The position numbers and the translations under genes were made by a program. From the sequence record OL631482.1: a DNA stretch of 64,000 bases. The stretch is one strand, 5' to 3'. The DNA is from Escherichia phage ECML-359. Below, piece by piece: positions 25,803-34,001 of this stretch. Each line of letters starts with the position of its first letter. Positions within the stretch are counted from its first letter, which is position 1. The notes below the pieces were generated by a model. It made no database searches. It was not told the DNA's origin and saw only the letters and a program-made list of their open reading frames with translations.

Positions 25803-27863
25803 CTATGAAAGGAATTTAGGAGGAATAGCTTCCAAATTAATACAACTAGCAAGAATACCAAGCCCTTGATTGACTTTCTTCGTTACCCCAGAGGATGCAA
25901 ACGATGCAAAGTCAACAGATTCTACTGGCTCTTCTGTTTCCTCGCCCTGATAAACGACAAGCTCACCAGTTTCTATCAACACATCACCATCATAGATAAC
26001 TGCATTTTCATCCAGTTGGTCCGTGGTCTGGATATCAGCTTCCAGCATTTTGACGTTCGCGTTTCCTTGATACGAAGCATCAGTAATTTTGGTAATCTTA
26101 ACTACAGTCCCACGAGGAAGAATAACTTCCTGCTCGGATGGGTTGCTTGACAATTCCCCAGGAACAATTACGTTAATTAAGTCCGCCCCAGAAATTTTCC
26201 AACCAACATGCATCATTACGTGGTCGCGGCGTGCTTCCGGCATATCTGGTAAAACAATTTCGTCATCAGCCTGGAAAGATGTCCCATCACGATAGTCCTG
26301 ATGAACTGCAGCCATAGCAACGTTCGCCACCCAGCCACCAAAGATAATCGGTTTAAACGACGTTGATACATAGTTCCTGAAATAAAATAATTTAGATTTC
26401 TTAATTTTATCAAATGTAGGAACGTTTAAATATTGACCACGCCAAAGAGTTGTATTAGGCGGCAACTTATGTCCAATTTCAAAGGCCGAATCCAATTCCT
26501 TAATTGTTTCGACAACTCTGTCTAGATTTAGGAATTCAGCTTCTTCTTCATAATATTTGCCCATCAAATAATTATTAATATCGGCATAGTTTGCTCCACA
26601 ATAATCTGCAATTGCTTCTCGCTGACCATAATGGAAACGGTTGTCAGTATACCCTGCTGTGAAATTAAGAGTATTTTCTGATGCTTCTTCAGCAAAGTCT
26701 TTAACTGCAACACGAATGGCGCTTGTGTATTCTTTTTCCCAGAGCGAGGCTGCATAAGTGGCTGCATCCACATTAGGAGGAGCATCATTCATTTTTCTTT
26801 CGATAAATGCGGCTTTGCGAAGGTTAAGAATCTCTGCGCATGATTCGGCAAAAATCTGCATCTGCTTCATACTACCAACTGGAGCACGTTTAAGTTCGCG
26901 ATGCATACGGTTAAAAATTGGGTCAGAGTCTTCAACACGAATTTCTTCTTTCCAAACACCATTTGCTCGCATAGCCGTATCTGCTGCGCGCATACGAGCC
27001 ATAGTATTCGTTTCGGAAGGTCGAACAAAAATTTCCAGTTCTTCATAATCATCGATAAGTTCTGCCGTAGCCGGTCGACTAAACTTAGCAGCTTCTGCAT
27101 CAATTTCGTCCCAACCTTCTGGCACGGAATCCATTGGGGCGTACTGGGCTTGTGCAATAGCTCGGCGACTGATTTTAGTTTTCTGGGCAACAGCAGCATC
27201 GGTCTTTTTGTTTGCTGCGTCAATCAGAATCTCGGCTGCAATTTCTTGTTTGGATACTTGTGCACCATTATCTTTATTGGTGAATACATCACCAACTTTA
27301 GTTTCGACTTTTTTATATTTCTCAGGGACTGGTGGCATACCATCGACTGAAAGCAGGTCAACACCCCTTTTGTACATAATTACATAAGCGTTCTTTTTAC
27401 CAAGGCCAGAAGCATTCGGAAGAACATGATAACGTCCGCTGGTTTTCATTTGAATCAGTCGATTCATAATACGAATAATAGCTTGGTCTTGTCCTTTCAT
27501 CTTTTTGGATGGGAAACGGAACAAGACTACATCAGGTTTGCCTAGTTTAATGCTTTCCCAGACTGTAGTAAAAATCAAGTTAATTGCATCAAGAGGTTTT
27601 TCACCTAAACCACCCTTCAGAGGAACAGCATGGCCATGTGAAGTCCCGGATAACAGAAATACCTCGGCAATTGCATCACCGCGTTTATATTGTTTAACTG
27701 TTTCTTTGCCCGTGAATTGCATCAAACGGGCCATAAGAGAATTGGTCCCAGGAACACCGAATTGCCAAACCTGTGGGACCTTGTATTTTGGATTCATATT
27801 AATGACAGGATAACCGAAGGTTTCGATATATTTGTCAAAGAGTTCATTTAATTGTTCAGACAT
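25803..27863 (-). CDS. alt: Alt ADP-ribosyltransferase (packaged)
   Basis: 686 aa; KVETKVGDVFTNKDNGAQVSK...KISRRAIAQAQ matches T4 Alt as recalled; minus-strand TATAAATA immediately upstream. Confidence 0.9.
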   Translation of the reverse strand: MSEQLNELFDKYIETFGYPVINMNPKYKVPQVWQFGVPGTNSLMARLMQFTGKETVKQYKRGDAIAEVFLLSGTSHGHAVPLKGGLGEKPLDAINLIFTTVWESIKLGKPDVVLFRFPSKKMKGQDQAIIRIMNRLIQMKTSGRYHVLPNASGLGKKNAYVIMYKRGVDLLSVDGMPPVPEKYKKVETKVGDVFTNKDNGAQVSKQEIAAEILIDAANKKTDAAVAQKTKISRRAIAQAQYAPMDSVPEGWDEIDAEAAKFSRPATAELIDDYEELEIFVRPSETNTMARMRAADTAMRANGVWKEEIRVEDSDPIFNRMHRELKRAPVGSMKQMQIFAESCAEILNLRKAAFIERKMNDAPPNVDAATYAASLWEKEYTSAIRVAVKDFAEEASENTLNFTAGYTDNRFHYGQREAIADYCGANYADINNYLMGKYYEEEAEFLNLDRVVETIKELDSAFEIGHKLPPNTTLWRGQYLNVPTFDKIKKSKLFYFRNYVSTSFKPIIFGGWVANVAMAAVHQDYRDGTSFQADDEIVLPDMPEARRDHVMMHVGWKISGADLINVIVPGELSSNPSEQEVILPRGTVVKITKITDASYQGNANVKMLEADIQTTDQLDENAVIYDGDVLIETGELVVYQGEETEEPVESVDFASFASSGVTKKVNQGLGILASCINLEAIPPKFLS

Positions 27864-27921: not shown

Positions 27922-29454
27922 TTATTTTAATCCAGTCTTTGACCAGTCGCCAAATACATCTTCGAATGTGTCTGCATGGTCTTTATCAAAACGGAACCCT
28001 TTGATAATCGACAGGAACAATGCAACCGTATTATCTTTACGAGTCTCGGAAGTCAACCAACCATTGCATTCACAGTCGGCAATCATTCCAACCAATTCAC
28101 CTTTACGTGCTTTAACCATCAAGGCTTCACGGTCCATTTCATGACGCTCCTCAATCGGAATAGTAACCCATTTTTTGGTTTTCTTATCTTTGACTTGAGT
28201 TGTGTCTTTAAAACCAGAACCACAGTTATTTGTAATCTTACCACAAGAAGAACGAAGCACCACACCGCCAATCTTATTCGGGTCTTTATCGTGCTCGTAA
28301 TATCCAATGATTTCCATTGCAATGTCAATTACTTCTTTGAACTTATACAGGTTCTTTGAGCGCTTGTTTTCCCAAATCGATGCCATGTTCTTAAGGATAA
28401 TACCTTCAAGGCCTTCATCCACGTATTTCTTATAGATAACTTTCGCTTCATCAAGATTGTTAACAACATGGTTTTCAATCAGAATCATGCGGTCAAAACC
28501 ATGCAGCACCACGTTATCTGCAATCATCTTTTCCAGAACAGCAAAACGCACATCGTATTTCAACGGATTGAGAATCTTAACATCAGAATAGACTTCAATC
28601 AGCGGAACATAATCCCAAACCTGGAATTTCATACAAGAAGCTTCTGCTGCAGAAATAGTTCCTTTCAATGATTTGTTTGCCATACCATTTGAAAAGGTTC
28701 TTGATTCAGCAGTTTCTTTTGCAGGAGCAATCTCATCTGAATCGTCAAAAAGGAAGCCCAAACCGTCATTCTGGGGAGCTATTTTCTGTTCATGGTATAC
28801 TAACTCGCCATCAATTAAAACGCCCTCAGGATGTCTCTCGCGCGCTTCACGAGTAGCTTCAATCAATTCCTTTTTAAGGAGGTCAAGCTTGAGGTACTCA
28901 TTTCCGGCTCGGGATAACAATCGAACATCATCCAACTCATCGCCGCGAACTTCTGCAAAACACCGAGCGCCATCGGCTTTCAATTGTGCAAAGGCCGGGA
29001 ACTTAATGTTCTTAGCAATACCAGCTTCATCATAAGAAGAAGCGAGCATCTGCGGTTGTTCAGGAATTAAACCTTTCCAAACCTTATTCGCAATTGATAC
29101 AGATGCACCACATTCCAGGTCACGCATCATCACACGCCGCAAGACTTCAACATCGGCCTTTTTACCATCTGCAATATAACCAGATAATTCCTCGATTGCC
29201 GCATTACCTGTTAATTTGCGAGAGGCTAATGTGAATTCGATAAAGTCAAGCATATCATCGATATTCAACATACCAAAGCTTTGAGTCGTTGCCCCAGGTT
29301 TTGGCCATTTCTTTATATAGAACTGGATGCCTTTGGAATATGTCAAACGATACACGCGTTTAAGGGTTTCATTATCAGAATACGATTCTAAGATAGCTTG
29401 TTTCTCTTTAGTAGAATCGGTTGCAGCAATTTCATTTAAAATATCTAAAATCAT
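27922..29454 (-). CDS. 30: ATP-dependent DNA ligase gp30
   Basis: 510 aa; MILDILNEIAATDSTKEKQAILE...; adenylation motif KADGARC; extensive identity to T4 ligase as recalled. Confidence 0.95.
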   Translation of the reverse strand: MILDILNEIAATDSTKEKQAILESYSDNETLKRVYRLTYSKGIQFYIKKWPKPGATTQSFGMLNIDDMLDFIEFTLASRKLTGNAAIEELSGYIADGKKADVEVLRRVMMRDLECGASVSIANKVWKGLIPEQPQMLASSYDEAGIAKNIKFPAFAQLKADGARCFAEVRGDELDDVRLLSRAGNEYLKLDLLKKELIEATREARERHPEGVLIDGELVYHEQKIAPQNDGLGFLFDDSDEIAPAKETAESRTFSNGMANKSLKGTISAAEASCMKFQVWDYVPLIEVYSDVKILNPLKYDVRFAVLEKMIADNVVLHGFDRMILIENHVVNNLDEAKVIYKKYVDEGLEGIILKNMASIWENKRSKNLYKFKEVIDIAMEIIGYYEHDKDPNKIGGVVLRSSCGKITNNCGSGFKDTTQVKDKKTKKWVTIPIEERHEMDREALMVKARKGELVGMIADCECNGWLTSETRKDNTVALFLSIIKGFRFDKDHADTFEDVFGDWSKTGLK

Positions 29455-29464
29455 TAATCACCTC

Positions 29465-29746
29465 TTAGTCGTTGACTCTATTATATGCCACGTCTTCCAA
29501 AAGCAAATCCAGCCGCTTATGATAAGTGAACACAAATTTAGTTGCCCCGTCTGGTTTCATTTTGGTCATGAAGTGAATATAGATAAATCCTTGCTCAACG
29601 CATTCACGCCAAACGGGGTTATCTTTAGCCGGATTAATATCAAACGAGTAATTATGATTCACATGACGAATAAACTGATTAACATGACCGTAATCCATCG
29701 TGGTAGTTGGACCATGGTCAGAAATAGTATGAACGACAAACATCAA
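29465..29746 (-). CDS. Hypothetical protein (T4 30.1 position)
   Basis: 93 aa; 4-nt overlap with the upstream ORF. Confidence 0.5.
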   Translation of the reverse strand: MMFVVHTISDHGPTTTMDYGHVNQFIRHVNHNYSFDINPAKDNPVWRECVEQGFIYIHFMTKMKPDGATKFVFTYHKRLDLLLEDVAYNRVND

Positions 29747-30567
29747 TTACCCCCTTGGCCACCGGTCGGTTGATTGTACCAGTATTCAATACCAGTACCT
29801 ACACGCTGGCCATATTGATATGGATATGCTGGATTATATCCAGGAGTCCACGGTTGACCAGGCTGCCAGCCTTGCTGCATTTGTTGTTGAAGGCGTCGAG
29901 TTTCACGAAACAGCTCTTCCAGTTTACGGAGTTCATCTGGAGTGAATTCTGGTTTGACTGGTTCATCTTTGTGTTTCAGTTTAAGCTGTCCAGCAACATC
30001 GTCCCAATTAAAAACTTTGGAAGCTGTTTTAGGAATAGCATCACGTTCGCCGCGGGCCATCCAATAAACCGGAACCTCAAGAATTTCACTCGCATGGTCG
30101 CAATGGTGTGCAAGGTCATCAATATAACAAATGACATTATATTTGTCTTTTGCCTTCTGAAACAAATCCTCTTTAGAGGCTGTATGGCCACACATCATCA
30201 CTTCTTTAAACGCTCCAGGGAACAAAGCATTCAGGTTAAATTGACGATTCAAGCGTGCGTCAATGGAATCACCCAGGGCTGTAACAGCCACAAAATCATA
30301 TTGCTCTTTGAGGTTATTGATAACCCTTAATGCATCCGCATAAGGAGACAAATAGCGAATAAAGTCTGAACAGTTATATTTTTCAATTAACTGCGCGCCT
30401 AACTCTTCATCACAATTGAAAAGTTTACCAGGGGTCACAAATTTTTCGTCCTGAATCATCTTAAGGATATGTTCCAGGGGTAAATTATATTTTTGAGCGA
30501 AATAAGGTAAGCCAGACTGCCATGACAAACATACGCCATCAATATCTGTTAAAATAACGGGTTTCAT
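29743..30567 (-). CDS. HAD-superfamily-like protein with Q/G/P/Y-rich tail (T4 30.2 position)
   Basis: 274 aa; N-terminal ILTDIDGV resembles HAD motif I (DxDG); C-terminal about 45 aa is low complexity. Confidence 0.6.
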   Translation of the reverse strand: MKPVILTDIDGVCLSWQSGLPYFAQKYNLPLEHILKMIQDEKFVTPGKLFNCDEELGAQLIEKYNCSDFIRYLSPYADALRVINNLKEQYDFVAVTALGDSIDARLNRQFNLNALFPGAFKEVMMCGHTASKEDLFQKAKDKYNVICYIDDLAHHCDHASEILEVPVYWMARGERDAIPKTASKVFNWDDVAGQLKLKHKDEPVKPEFTPDELRKLEELFRETRRLQQQMQQGWQPGQPWTPGYNPAYPYQYGQRVGTGIEYWYNQPTGGQGGN

Positions 30568-31031
30568 AATGCATCTCTCAATTGGTTAAGTATGTCAATA
30601 AATTCTTGTTCAGTCAATATTGTATCATGAACAGTAAGGTGGCTCGCCATCGAATGCTTTAAAACTTTGCCTTTTGTGGATTGTAACGCATTGCGGAATC
30701 CTTGGTTCTGGAGCGCTGCTTCAAAATATGCATTTGTATACAGCTCTTTCCATGCTGCAGAGTATCTTGAAAAGGGAATTCCAAGCCAGAAAAGCGTCCC
30801 ACGGTCCGCAGCTCTTGCATAAGCTCTTCCACTTTGCTGGGCGGCCAATCCGGACATCCCAAATATACGTTTTTGTTGTTCATGATTTCTCACCTTGCAC
30901 CCTTGTAGGAAGCCTTCAAGACCTCCAAACTGGATACCCTCCATAACAAAAGGCCATTTAGCAAAGTTACTTAATGCACATGATGGCCATGGGAAATTGC
31001 TTCTGATTTCTAACTCAGACATTTTTGACAC
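30564..31031 (-). CDS. Possible NADAR/YbiA-like domain protein (T4 30.3 position)
   Basis: 155 aa; SNFAKWPF...G.EGFLQGCK resembles the SNF..WP...E..FQ..K core of YbiA/NADAR proteins; family call from memory, unverified. Confidence 0.55.
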   Translation of the reverse strand: MSKMSELEIRSNFPWPSCALSNFAKWPFVMEGIQFGGLEGFLQGCKVRNHEQQKRIFGMSGLAAQQSGRAYARAADRGTLFWLGIPFSRYSAAWKELYTNAYFEAALQNQGFRNALQSTKGKVLKHSMASHLTVHDTILTEQEFIDILNQLRDAL

Positions 31032-31227
31032 TGATAATCTCTACATCAGCCCAATGACCATAACCAGGTAAACGGTCTTTAATAGATAATCCGCCGTCAG
31101 ATTTCAGCATTTTAATTGTTTTAGTATATGGTTCAATATTTCGGGCCCATGGACTTACGTCAGTCACGCGATAAGTAACTTCAACCATTTCTGTTCCCAA
31201 AATTTTCTGAATCAGTTTCTTAAACAT
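31015..31227 (-). CDS. Hypothetical protein
   Basis: 70 aa ORF in the 30.x accessory cluster. Confidence 0.4.
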   Translation of the reverse strand: MFKKLIQKILGTEMVEVTYRVTDVSPWARNIEPYTKTIKMLKSDGGLSIKDRLPGYGHWADVEIISVKNV

Positions 31228-31228
31228 A

Positions 31229-31423
31229 TTATCCTCGCTTTAAACATTTGATTACAGACAACTCACCACCCATGCGAACGTCTTCAGTTCCATCAACCCA
31301 CAAGACTGCATATGCTTCTTTAATTTGGGTATTGCCTAATTTAAACGCAGGCAGGACCTTTGAAATCATTCCAGGAATACCCACACCTTTTAACTGAACA
31401 GTTTGTGATAAGAATAATTTCAT
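31229..31423 (-). CDS. Hypothetical protein
   Basis: 64 aa ORF in the 30.x cluster; adjacent start/stop arrangement. Confidence 0.4.
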   Translation of the reverse strand: MKLFLSQTVQLKGVGIPGMISKVLPAFKLGNTQIKEAYAVLWVDGTEDVRMGGELSVIKCLKRG

Positions 31424-31764
31424 TAGAACCTCATCTGGAAACCGTGTGATTTAACATTACCGCCATTAATATCAGATGAATTAATTTCACGTGCTGCAAT
31501 TGGGGCAATATCAATGTCGCGTCTAAGCTTGGTGATTGCCAGAGTATCGCGTCCATTAACAGTCCGGAATTCTAGTGGGCAAACTACATCAACATAGTTC
31601 TTAATGGAATCACGTGTTGGTTCACACCCAGCAGGAACATTAGGGCCTTTTTTAGAGAAAACAACTTCACAGAAATTTTTACGTGTATCAAAGTAAGTAG
31701 TCATAAACATAGTATTTTCCTCAAGGGGCTTTCGCCCCCATTTAAGATTAGATATCAAATTCAT
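31423..31764 (-). CDS. Hypothetical protein
   Basis: Up to 113 aa; true start may be an internal ATG (MFMTTYFD...). Confidence 0.5.
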   Translation of the reverse strand: MNLISNLKWGRKPLEENTMFMTTYFDTRKNFCEVVFSKKGPNVPAGCEPTRDSIKNYVDVVCPLEFRTVNGRDTLAITKLRRDIDIAPIAAREINSSDINGGNVKSHGFQMRF

Positions 31765-32113
31765 TAAGAACTACATCAAAGATTGCTTCCAGGTGTTCAG
31801 GTTTTGCTTTGTTGCTCAGGATGTGACGAATCCAAGTTTTAACCAGAAGCTTGCGATTAACACCATTCCAGCAAGGATGAGTCCCTAAATCACGTTCACG
31901 GAAATCATCATCTAATGCGATTTTGAATACCGAACCTTCCATCGTGATTGAAAGAGTGATACCATTTTCAAATCGCATATAAACGTAGTTAGGAGTCATA
32001 TATTGTTCAATTTCACACACTGAACCGTTTTGATGTTTCCACAAGCAAATAACTTCAGAAGAACCTGGGATGCAGTTAGAAACATATTTGCGTTCAAAGT
32101 TGATGTAGTTCAT
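31748..32113 (-). CDS. Hypothetical protein
   Basis: 121 aa ORF in the 30.x cluster. Confidence 0.5.
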   Translation of the reverse strand: MNYINFERKYVSNCIPGSSEVICLWKHQNGSVCEIEQYMTPNYVYMRFENGITLSITMEGSVFKIALDDDFRERDLGTHPCWNGVNRKLLVKTWIRHILSNKAKPEHLEAIFDVVLNEFDI

Positions 32114-32184
32114 TTTATTCTCCAGTTGTTTTCATTTGTTGGTACAGGTCTATAATATCATAACCTGTACCAAAGTAAACTGTT

Positions 32185-32553
32185 TTATGCGACTTTAATC
32201 CAATTATCTAAATTTAATTCACCTTTAGCTTTCATTTTTTCAATCAGAAGGTCTGCAGTGGTGCGACCATTTTGATACCATGTAACATCTTCAGAATAAC
32301 CAGTTTCTTCATCTTCATAGGTCTTACAACGAATCTTACCCAAAATCAAAGTTTTCAGTTCGTAGGTATCACCAGTAAAAAAGTTTGTTACCATAATTTT
32401 CCAGGAGAAGTCATCAGAAGGACCTTCAGGAGTCATACAACCAACAAATTCAAACTGTTCTTTATACAAGTGCCATTGCATTTCTTTAGTTTCAATGGCT
32501 TTGTAACCGTCGTGGTCTTTACCTTTGATGTATGAGTTAAGATTGATTTTCAT
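32185..32553 (-). CDS. Hypothetical protein
   Basis: 122 aa; preceded by an early-type promoter with the conserved 23-nt leader. Confidence 0.55.
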   Translation of the reverse strand: MKINLNSYIKGKDHDGYKAIETKEMQWHLYKEQFEFVGCMTPEGPSDDFSWKIMVTNFFTGDTYELKTLILGKIRCKTYEDEETGYSEDVTWYQNGRTTADLLIEKMKAKGELNLDNWIKVA

Positions 32554-32589
32554 TTTATTCTCCAGTGTTTTATTGTGTAACTCAGTATG

Positions 32590-32624
32590 GAATCATTATG
32601 CACTGGGCAAATCCTGTTGTAAAC
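32590..32624 (-). promoter_or_regulatory. Early-type promoter with conserved 23-nt leader, upstream of ORF 32185-32553
   Basis: Minus strand reads GTTTACaacaggatttgcccagtgCATAATGATTCCATACTGAGTTAC. Confidence 0.6.
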
Positions 32625-32633
32625 CCCTTTATG

Positions 32634-32663
32634 GAAAATAAAAAAGGGACTCCGAAGAGTCCC
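32634..32663 (-). terminator. Intrinsic terminator after the small basic ORF
   Basis: Minus strand reads GGGACTC-ttcg-GAGTCCC followed by TTTTTTATTTT. Confidence 0.8.
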
Positions 32664-32668
32664 TGAAC

Positions 32669-32830
32669 TTATGCTTTCGGCTTACCAAAGCAAGCTGCAT
32701 CGGCGCGCAATACCGCACGAGCACGAGCCTGAAGTTTATCAGTCACCTGATTGATTCGCTTGTTGGACGCACGCTTGTAACCAGCGCGTTTGGAGGAGCC
32801 ATCAACAACTTTAACTTCTTTCTTAGCCAT
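32669..32830 (-). CDS. Hypothetical small basic protein (53 aa)
   Basis: Hand-translated MAKKEVKVVDGSSKRAGYKRASNKRINQVTDKLQARARAVLRADAACFGKPKA; weak ribosome-binding site; followed by a strong hairpin and U-tract terminator; coordinates approximate. Confidence 0.35.
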   Translation of the reverse strand: MAKKEVKVVDGSSKRAGYKRASNKRINQVTDKLQARARAVLRADAACFGKPKA

Positions 32831-33227
32831 ATTAAATTCTCTTTAAAATAGAAGCAGGACTTATTGGCATTGCCTGCGCAAGCCCTCGAAGGGAACATTA
32901 GGTTTCGGATATTTAACGACAGGATAACCATAAACCTCGTCATCATACCTTATAGCTCTTATCTGTTGCACACCGTTAGCTTAAAGGTTCCGGGTTCGAT
33001 TTCTCGAGGATAAGATATATACTGATGGATATATAGGCCTTGAGGCGTACTCCCGATTGGCCATCACCTCGGGGTAGCATGCACTTGCCGCTATAAGAAT
33101 AACATTCAAGAGGTACACCGTAAAACTGCCGGGGTCTTAAAACTATAATGATTCGCAAATCATTAATCAGACGGTTCGACGGCTCCTCGATTTTCTAGCC
33201 GCACTAAGGTAGCGAATCACCTACAGC

Positions 33228-33482
33228 TTACTTCAGGGTTACGACAAAATGGCGAACAGCTTTACGGGCAGCAGATGCCAGCGGCTTAGCAAATTTCAGT
33301 TCATCTTTTGCTTCGAGCACTGCGCGAAGGTCGGTTTGAACCGGGTTAAGATGTTTGAAATACTGCAGAATTTCCAGTGCTTCGGCTTCAACATCAATAG
33401 ATGCGCCGTAGTTTTCGTGACCGTTATTCCATGCAGTGCGTTGCAGTTCGAGAGCGTGTTGTAATTGTTTGTTTAAAGACAT
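33228..33482 (-). CDS. rIII: rIII lysis-inhibition accessory protein
   Basis: About 84 aa from the internal ATG (MSLNKQLQHALELQRTAWNNGHENYGASIDVEAEALEILQYFKHLNP...), matching T4 rIII as recalled. Confidence 0.85.
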   Translation of the reverse strand: MSLNKQLQHALELQRTAWNNGHENYGASIDVEAEALEILQYFKHLNPVQTDLRAVLEAKDELKFAKPLASAARKAVRHFVVTLK

Positions 33483-33636
33483 TTTAGAAGCCTCAATATG
33501 AGGTGAATATTTGGTGGACACGTTCTTCTGAATTTCACTTCCTTTCGGCAAGTCTCTCAGTTGTAGTCCACCGTTTAGGATTAGCTAACCCCATACACCA
33601 GCAAAGCTCTGTATGACATCAACCAATCCATATTAT

Positions 33637-33644
33637 TATTTATA
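33637..33644 (-). promoter_or_regulatory. Candidate late promoter (TATAAATA on minus strand) upstream of rIII
   Basis: TATAAATA on the minus strand just downstream of the gene 31 stop, about 150 nt upstream of the rIII ATG. Confidence 0.5.
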
Positions 33645-33653
33645 ACGCTAATT

Positions 33654-34001
33654 TTACTTATAAAGACAAGGAACAGCTTTATAATGACAGGTCACAAATT
33701 TCTGCTTAACTTCTTTAGCCTGCTTAAGTCCCAGTGCAACCAGAGGATGTGGAACGTTTGCAATCTTGCCAACCGGAAGAGGAGTCAAATCACCTACTTC
33801 GCAGAATCCTTCAGGAACATCCGGACCAACCGAAAATACTTCACACATCTCCGGGATTTCACCCTGATGGAGTTTTCCGATAACGATACCTGATGCCGTA
33901 GTTTCTTCATCACCAGCTTGCTTTGGCTCAGAAACCAAAATAATATATTCACCTACTGCTTTAATTGGTAATTCCATATTTAATCCATGTTGTTTGGTCA
34001 T
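33654..34001 (-). CDS. 31: Co-chaperonin gp31 (GroES analogue)
   Basis: 115 aa; [18 protein letters not shown]...[16 protein letters not shown]...[15 protein letters not shown] matches T4 gp31. Confidence 0.95.

Follow-up and report, generated by a model that had tools for sequence, protein, structure and literature searches.

Gene 30.3 in phage ECML-359

In a 64,000-nucleotide stretch of DNA from Escherichia phage ECML-359 (sequence record OL631482.1; the whole stretch is hereafter called the window), we examined a minus-strand gene corresponding to gene 30.3 of phage T4, whose product has been renamed AdfN, for anti-DarT factor NADAR (Johannesman et al., Nat Commun 2025, PMC11825919). The open reading frame (ORF) list for 27-35 kb contains a minus-strand ORF of 155 amino acids (aa) at 30564-31031, starting with GTG, and its translation includes ALSNFAKWPFVMEGIQFGGLEGFLQGCK. 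The T4 30.3 coding sequence is 459 nucleotides (nt) long with an annotated ATG start and a 152-aa product, and the equivalent ATG in the window is at 31020-31022, nine bases inside the GTG start. Because T4 gp30.3 and the 152-aa reading align over their entire length, we place the gene at 30564-31022 (Table 1); the ATG at 31022, and not the GTG at 31031, is likely the adfN start, and the three codons preceding it are probably not part of the translated protein. The original prediction, made from the letters alone, had begun the gene at the GTG; its ORF and translation hold, with the start moved inward, and both motifs that it quoted, SNFAKWPF and GLEGFLQGCK (30894-30923), are present.

The ORF is real, far beyond chance. 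It matches Pfam family PF08010 (Phage_30_3) with E=1.1e-62 and 210 bits, against a cut-off of 36, over profile positions 2-138 of 138; it is assigned to phrog_652 in PHROGs (function unknown, E=8e-50), and 1,510 phage records contain a gp30.3 homologue. Over the 4 kb surrounding the gene, the sequence shares 98-99% identity with Gaprivervirus members, Escherichia T-even phages such as pEC-M719-6WT.2, EAWsc9, and UPEC07. The gene lies between 30.4 and 30.2, with the ligase gene and alt downstream of it on the same strand; the original prediction had put it in one cluster with Alt and DNA ligase. The order alt-30-30.1-30.2-30.3-30.4 is common to the window, T4, and RB69, and the junction sequences at both ends of adfN, on the 30.4 and the 30.2 side, are the same in T4.

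Table 1. Features of the adfN region, in coordinates of the window
Feature	Position	Strand	Description
adfN (gene 30.3)	30564..31022	-	ATG start to TGA stop; 152-aa NADAR-fold protein, predicted DNA ADP-ribosylglycohydrolase
Extra codons GTG-TCA-AAA of the 155-aa ORF	31023..31031	-	Upstream of the ATG equivalent to that of T4; last sense codons of gene 30.4
SNFAKWPF motif, residues 18-25	30948..30971	-	S18 and N19 are the conserved N-terminal motif of NADARs; aligns to YbiA SNFA
Glu36	30915..30917	-	Catalytic; aligns to YbiA Glu
Lys43	30894..30896	-	Catalytic
His123	30654..30656	-	End of last beta-strand
C-terminal helix, last 15 residues EQEFIDILNQLRDAL	30567..30611	-	Helix in the model; predicted local distance difference test (pLDDT) score of the block 87-90
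30.3' ORF, 74 aa	30659..30883	-	Other frame, inside adfN; Pfam DUF2883, E=2e-26
alt	25803..27863	-	ADP-ribosyltransferase; Pfam ADPrib_exo_Tox, E=2e-19
Gene 30	27922..29454	-	ATP-dependent DNA ligase; Pfam DNA_ligase_A_M, E=2e-28
Gene 30.1		-	Between gene 30 and 30.2 in gene order; DUF3045
Gene 30.2, 274 aa	29743..30567	-	phrog_420, function unknown; its ATG overlaps the adfN TGA (ATGA)
Gene 30.4, 70 aa	31015..31227	-	Last codons AAT GTC TGA contain the adfN ATG; 8-nt overlap
Homologues of 30.5 and 30.6, then 30.7, 30.8		-	Past 30.4 in gene order; T4 order

Family placement and fold

The NADAR/YbiA-like fold suggested for this protein was borne out by structure prediction and by profile comparison. 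An AlphaFold2 model of the window protein, built with ten homologues (mean pLDDT 85.2, predicted template modeling score 0.82), has the NADAR alpha+beta fold, and its sole meaningful matches in the PDB are YbiA, PnNADAR with ADP-ribose, and the G. lovleyi DarG1-NADAR. For sequence comparison we used a family profile and alignment of 72 single-domain members, which are 29-59% identical to the window protein; the top match of this profile among PDB sequences is YbiA (E=0.0012), with the SNF motif, the Glu, and the Lys aligned. Pfam NADAR (PF08719) is matched individually by 13 of the 72 members, weakly (best E=3.5e-6), and the multidomain relatives with listed scores reach at most 27.3 bits against its cut-off of 35.1. 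NADAR membership is thus supported by fold, motifs, and the profile-to-YbiA match. A Pfam search, which the original prediction had named as a check, returned the protein's own family and not NADAR, and it was the deeper profile and structure tests that gave NADAR; used as a refutation test, a plain Pfam search would give a false negative, because the protein falls in PF08010 and not in PF08719.

A word-index homologue search for the breadth of the family recovered only close relatives and fragments, and an exhaustive profile search was needed. With E<=1e-3 this search yielded 1,389 clusters (50% identity), such that PF08010 is far wider than the T4-like phages. Its members include tandem duplications of ~290 aa and fusions to BspA-type leucine-rich repeats, prolipoprotein diacylglyceryl transferase (LGT), or FtsW/RodA-like domains; these could be cellular members or gene-calling fusions.

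Catalytic residues

Residues N19, E36, H123, and T137 are invariant across the 72 members, and conservation is at least 90% at S18, Q40, and K43. E36 and K43 (T4 numbering) align with their T4 counterparts, and together with H123 they provide the conserved catalytic residues that the family call requires. The position in the last strand separates the NADAR groups: it is Glu in YbiA-type proteins, Asp in those associated with DarT1 (DarG1/BC4488), and His in the phage gp30.3 NADARs (PMC11125620, PMC11543638). The window protein has His123 here, the last beta-strand of the model stopping one residue before it, and this places it in the gp30.3/AdfN family. As the Glu of the YbiA subfamily is replaced by His123, we do not class it as YbiA-type, and the DarG1/BC4488 combination of a last-strand Asp, an N-terminal extension, and an adjoining darT1 gene was not found.

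This residue bears directly on whether gp30.3 might be a YbiA-like housekeeping N-glycosidase, clearing reactive riboflavin-pathway intermediates or other small molecules instead of repairing DNA. YbiA is the best PDB match by both structure and sequence, and YbiA-type NADARs are cited in PMC11125620 and PMC11543638 as active on riboflavin intermediates. However, the Glu that defines YbiA is His in the window protein and in 72/72 family members, the phylogeny puts the T4-type group nearest DarG1 and not YbiA, and for the T4 orthologue a DNA substrate and a defense phenotype have been demonstrated. We therefore regard a housekeeping role of this kind as most improbable.

An intact allele

The window protein is 84% identical to T4 gp30.3 (94% positives) over 152/152 positions without a gap, and shares 100% identity with that of UPEC07; the adfN ORF of EAWsc9 is also intact. 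RB69 differs in this respect, and we could retrace its lesion in the RB69 sequence: owing to one additional T, at nt 411, the protein ends ...DTILT after 137 aa, and dropping this T restores a 152-aa ORF. Loss of the C-terminal helix, as in the RB69-type truncation, lowers activity (PMC11825919). With a natural frameshift in RB69, and with truncated or fused gp30.3 fragments frequent in databases, an inactive or decaying allele in the window could be envisaged too. However, the window allele is without the extra T at nt 411, its full-length ORF can be aligned with T4 AdfN up to and including the final residue, and it retains E36, K43, H123, and the C-terminal helix; given also the identical UPEC07 protein and the intact ORF in EAWsc9, we hold decay to be very unlikely. 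Identity, intactness, fold, conserved catalytic residues, and synteny are all direct observations on this gene.

Among database entries for gp30.3, many are fragments (86-126 aa) or include domains of 30.3', 30.7, or 30.8. The pattern points to repeated frameshifting or deletion across 30.3-30.8 in natural T-even phages, to assembly errors, or to both; RB69 may not be the sole phage with a defective adfN. Annotation in the related genomes is uneven: the EAWsc9 record leaves its intact adfN ORF unannotated (L001 5565-6023) and labels a 53-aa ORF '1,4-alpha-glucan branching enzyme', and in the UPEC07 record (L007), 30.4 is called 'putative baseplate hub' and 30.1 goes under 'baseplate tail tube cap protein'.

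Function of AdfN

The function of gp30.3 has already been published in 2023-2025 (in vitro activity in 2024 and the anti-DarTG1 role in 2025) and is not new. DarTG1 resistance of T2 and T4 maps to gene 30.3, deletion of adfN makes both phages DarTG1-sensitive, and AdfN supplied in trans rescues RB69 on DarTG1; purified T4 AdfN strips ADP-ribose off DNA, the E36A substitution impairs T4 AdfN in vivo and in vitro, and K43A is also impaired (PMC11825919). NADARs undo DarT1 guanine ADP-ribosylation, and the His variant in phage NADARs has been noted (Schuller et al. 2023, PMC11543638). Cihlova et al. (2024, PMC11125620) list gp30.3 proteins among the phage NADARs and report that the gp30.3 NADAR hydrolyzes guanine-ADP-ribose (guanine-ADPr) but not thymidine-ADPr in vitro, and that gp30.3 does not rescue uninfected cells from DarT1 toxicity. 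Their methods describe the construct as 'E. coli T4 phage NADAR (gp30.3; residues 1-208)', whereas T4 gp30.3 has 152 aa; the construct may include tags or stem from another phage. The HIDEN-SEQ preprint finds 30.3/adfN to be conditionally essential on DarTG1, and its T4 transposon data (DarTG1 sheet) give 30.3 a log2 fold change (log2FC) of -7.25 with an adjusted p of 0. As far as the citations in the 2023-2024 papers go, the NADAR assignment of gp30.3 traces to comparative genomics, and Iyer et al. (2022) describe the NADARs of T4-like phages as early genes expressed alongside ADP-ribosyltransferases.

With this background we consider it highly probable that the window gene, an intact orthologue of T4 30.3/adfN in a Gaprivervirus-type T-even phage, counters DarTG1 by removing ADP-ribose from guanine. 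Enzymatic activity, guanine specificity, and the anti-DarTG1 phenotype would carry over from the experiments on the T4 protein. Reversal of nucleic-acid ADP-ribosylation, or the countering of a DarTG-like defense, was the role first suggested from the motif, and it agrees with the activity and DarTG1 phenotype of the 84%-identical T4 AdfN (PMC11825919, PMC11125620, HIDEN-SEQ); a correct functional call could be made from the motif. In the mechanism that we propose, the host DarT1 toxin would attach ADP-ribose to guanine in the phage DNA and block replication. AdfN, as a small stand-alone N-glycosidase of NADAR fold, would hydrolyze the bond between guanine and ADP-ribose with the help of Glu36, Lys43, and the phage-type His123, and with ADP-ribose released and unmodified DNA restored, replication could proceed. 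The enzyme would act on the DNA lesion and not through binding of the toxin, and it would not be expected to reverse the thymidine-ADP-ribose made by DarT2.

Several points weigh against this interpretation. Relative to T4 AdfN, the window protein has 25 substitutions in 152 positions, and searching the text of the AdfN paper for the genus name gave no Gaprivervirus among the phages tested there. The window protein does not match PF08719 even at E<=10, and single-protein searches of NCBIfam and of PDB sequences gave no NADAR match; we attribute these missing matches to the limited sensitivity of single-sequence searches and not to a protein outside the superfamily, as the profile and structure tests succeeded. 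T4 AdfN itself fails to detoxify DarT1 in uninfected cells, rescues T5 and Bas25 weakly, and is fully effective only in T-even infection, suggesting an extra phage factor (PMC11825919). A picture in which the enzyme acts alone is therefore incomplete, and a T-even factor or context is needed.

We also considered whether some or all of the action of gp30.3 is non-catalytic, through binding of ADP-ribose or of a defense protein, or whether it degrades soluble ADPr-derived immune signals. By a Retron-Eco1 reference cited in PMC11825919, another phage NADAR needs no enzymatic activity; Iyer et al. suggested that phage NADARs prefer soluble ADPr derivatives as substrates, and rescue by E36A and K43A is partial and not zero (PMC11825919). 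However, a two-hybrid assay showed no interaction between AdfN and DarT1, the catalytic mutants are less effective in vivo, and in vitro the E36A protein no longer removes ADPr (PMC11825919). An additional target is not needed to account for the data, and we think such a role unlikely, if somewhat less so than decay of the allele.

Removal of ADP-ribose from guanine by an intact AdfN would have a practical consequence: the window phage, carrying a validated anti-defense enzyme, should by analogy with T4 resist DarTG1 hosts, which is useful in therapeutic phage choice. Our analysis adds nothing new on AdfN biology, and touches one question, namely why full function of T4-type AdfN is confined to T-even infection.

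The alt neighborhood

The original prediction also suggested a connection between gp30.3 and Alt, and this was not supported. AdfN acts on the guanine-ADPr produced by host DarT1, whereas the targets of Alt are proteins. In the T4 transposon data on DarTG1, alt insertions are neutral (log2FC -0.01, not significant), as are those in 30.1 (-0.01, not significant), and 61.2/adfA shows -0.34, also not significant; a functional link to Alt or AdfA is accordingly rejected. The proximity to alt is also kept in RB69 and in an Acinetobacter Lazarusvirus; it reflects a conserved order of genes and does not demonstrate that the two work as a pair.

A related alternative pairs gp30.3 with Alt as writer and eraser, gp30.3 removing the phage's own ADP-ribosylation by Alt, ModA, or ModB of host proteins or RNA. 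The two genes are 2.7 kb apart on the same strand, and the early co-expression with ADP-ribosyltransferases described by Iyer et al. would suit such an arrangement. But the loss of 30.3 insertions while alt insertions stay neutral makes the known phenotype independent of Alt; all characterized NADARs act on guanine-ADPr, with negative tests on thymidine-ADPr, and the alt-30-30.x order is kept across the Straboviridae, as expected from ancestry alone. Self-erasure seems to us about as improbable as an RB69-like allele.

The adfN-30.2-ligase-alt block is preserved in Acinetobacter phage DLP3 (L003 922-1446), a distant T4-like phage. A putative ADP-ribose pyrophosphatase (Nudix) is encoded ~2.5 kb upstream of adfN on the same strand in DLP3, and could dispose of the ADP-ribose that AdfN releases.

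Genes 30.2 and 30.4

Both genes that overlap adfN could be considered as the T-even factor. For gp30.2 the reasons were the ATGA overlap, a HAD-like N-terminus, and an occurrence in much the same phages as 30.3 (1,448 phage records, with the taxon spread of 30.3). It is ruled out as a cofactor of AdfN for T4, where 30.2 insertions are neutral on DarTG1 (log2FC -0.12, p=0.61). gp30.2 has no Pfam family; its N-terminus has a HAD-like DxDGV motif, with a weak match to 5'(3')-deoxyribonucleotidase (E=0.28), and its C-terminal tail is of low complexity and rich in Q, P, G, and Y.

Gene 30.4 remains as a lead. Exactly two genes are significant genome-wide in the T4 transposon screen on DarTG1, 30.3 and 30.4, the latter with a log2FC of -1.79 (p=1e-4, adjusted p=0.014); 30.4 did not come up when the text of the HIDEN-SEQ preprint was searched for it. 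gp30.4 occurs in 721 phage records, all of enterobacterial T-even types, and is present in RB69; it is 49% identical between the window phage and T4, with an invariant C-terminal YGHWADVEIIS. This distribution, the presence in RB69, and the invariant C-terminus are compatible with gp30.4 being the potentiating factor that T4-type AdfN needs for full function, although we think this doubtful. The 8-nt overlap of 30.4 with 30.3 is also found in T4 and is annotated in RB69, and suggests from its sequence that translation of adfN is coupled to that of 30.4. There is no Shine-Dalgarno sequence upstream of the adfN ATG in the window phage or in T4, and the transposon of the T4 screen has stop codons in all three frames. 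With the adfN ATG inside 30.4, insertions in 30.4 would then uncouple adfN translation and lower AdfN, and translational coupling probably explains the 30.4 result, at least as well as a potentiating factor does.

Other features of the region

The 30.3' ORF within adfN, annotated in T4 as an 'internal translation' ORF, was rejected as a real overlapping gene. An alternative-frame ORF of at least this length arises in 33-37% of synonymous-codon resamplings of adfN, and in RB69 30.3' is not intact; it is probably a by-product ORF, one that may have acquired a Pfam family.

A promoter and terminator scan of 29400-33700 gave counts not above those of shuffled sequence, and because of this we claim no transcription unit. 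At 32595-32664 (minus strand), just upstream of 30.8, we note a strong terminator-like hairpin, AGGGACTCTTCGGAGTCCCT, with a T run, followed by a promoter-like site (10/12 match), in a scan overall no richer than shuffled sequence; this site may start a 30.8-to-30.1 transcription unit. The ORF of the 30.6 homologue (31423-31764, minus strand) is listed as 113 aa, but its PHROG match begins at residue 19, and the protein probably starts at an internal Met (MFMTTYF...), with ~95 aa as in T4.

Comparison with known systems

The closest characterized relative of the window protein is T4 gp30.3/AdfN, with which it shares PF08010, E36/K43/H123, the C-terminal helix, the place between 30.4 and 30.2, and the 8-nt and 4-nt overlaps with these genes. 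It differs by the 25 substitutions and by its host genome, T4 being a Tequatrovirus and the window phage of Gaprivervirus type. RB69 has the same gene at the same locus, but its gp30.3 has lost the last helix and is a natural loss-of-function allele; the window allele is free of this lesion.

The DarG1/BC4488-type antitoxins (E. coli C7 and G. lovleyi 8BAT; PMC11543638) have a last-strand Asp, an N-terminal extension, and an adjoining darT1, whereas AdfN, from a lytic phage, is an orphan that stands alone and has a last-strand His, and T4 AdfN is unable to replace DarG1 in uninfected cells. E. coli YbiA (2B3W) and the P. nicotianae NADAR (8BAU), both of the YbiA subfamily, have a last-strand Glu in place of the His of the window protein, and YbiA serves as a housekeeping enzyme of riboflavin metabolism and gives no in vivo protection against DarT1 (PMC11125620, PMC11543638). 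AdfN-Bas32 and AdfN-Bas60, from T5-like and Vequintavirinae phages, are like AdfN in being phage orphan NADARs that neutralize DarTG1, but they belong to other NADAR clades, were independently acquired, and are effective without the T-even context.
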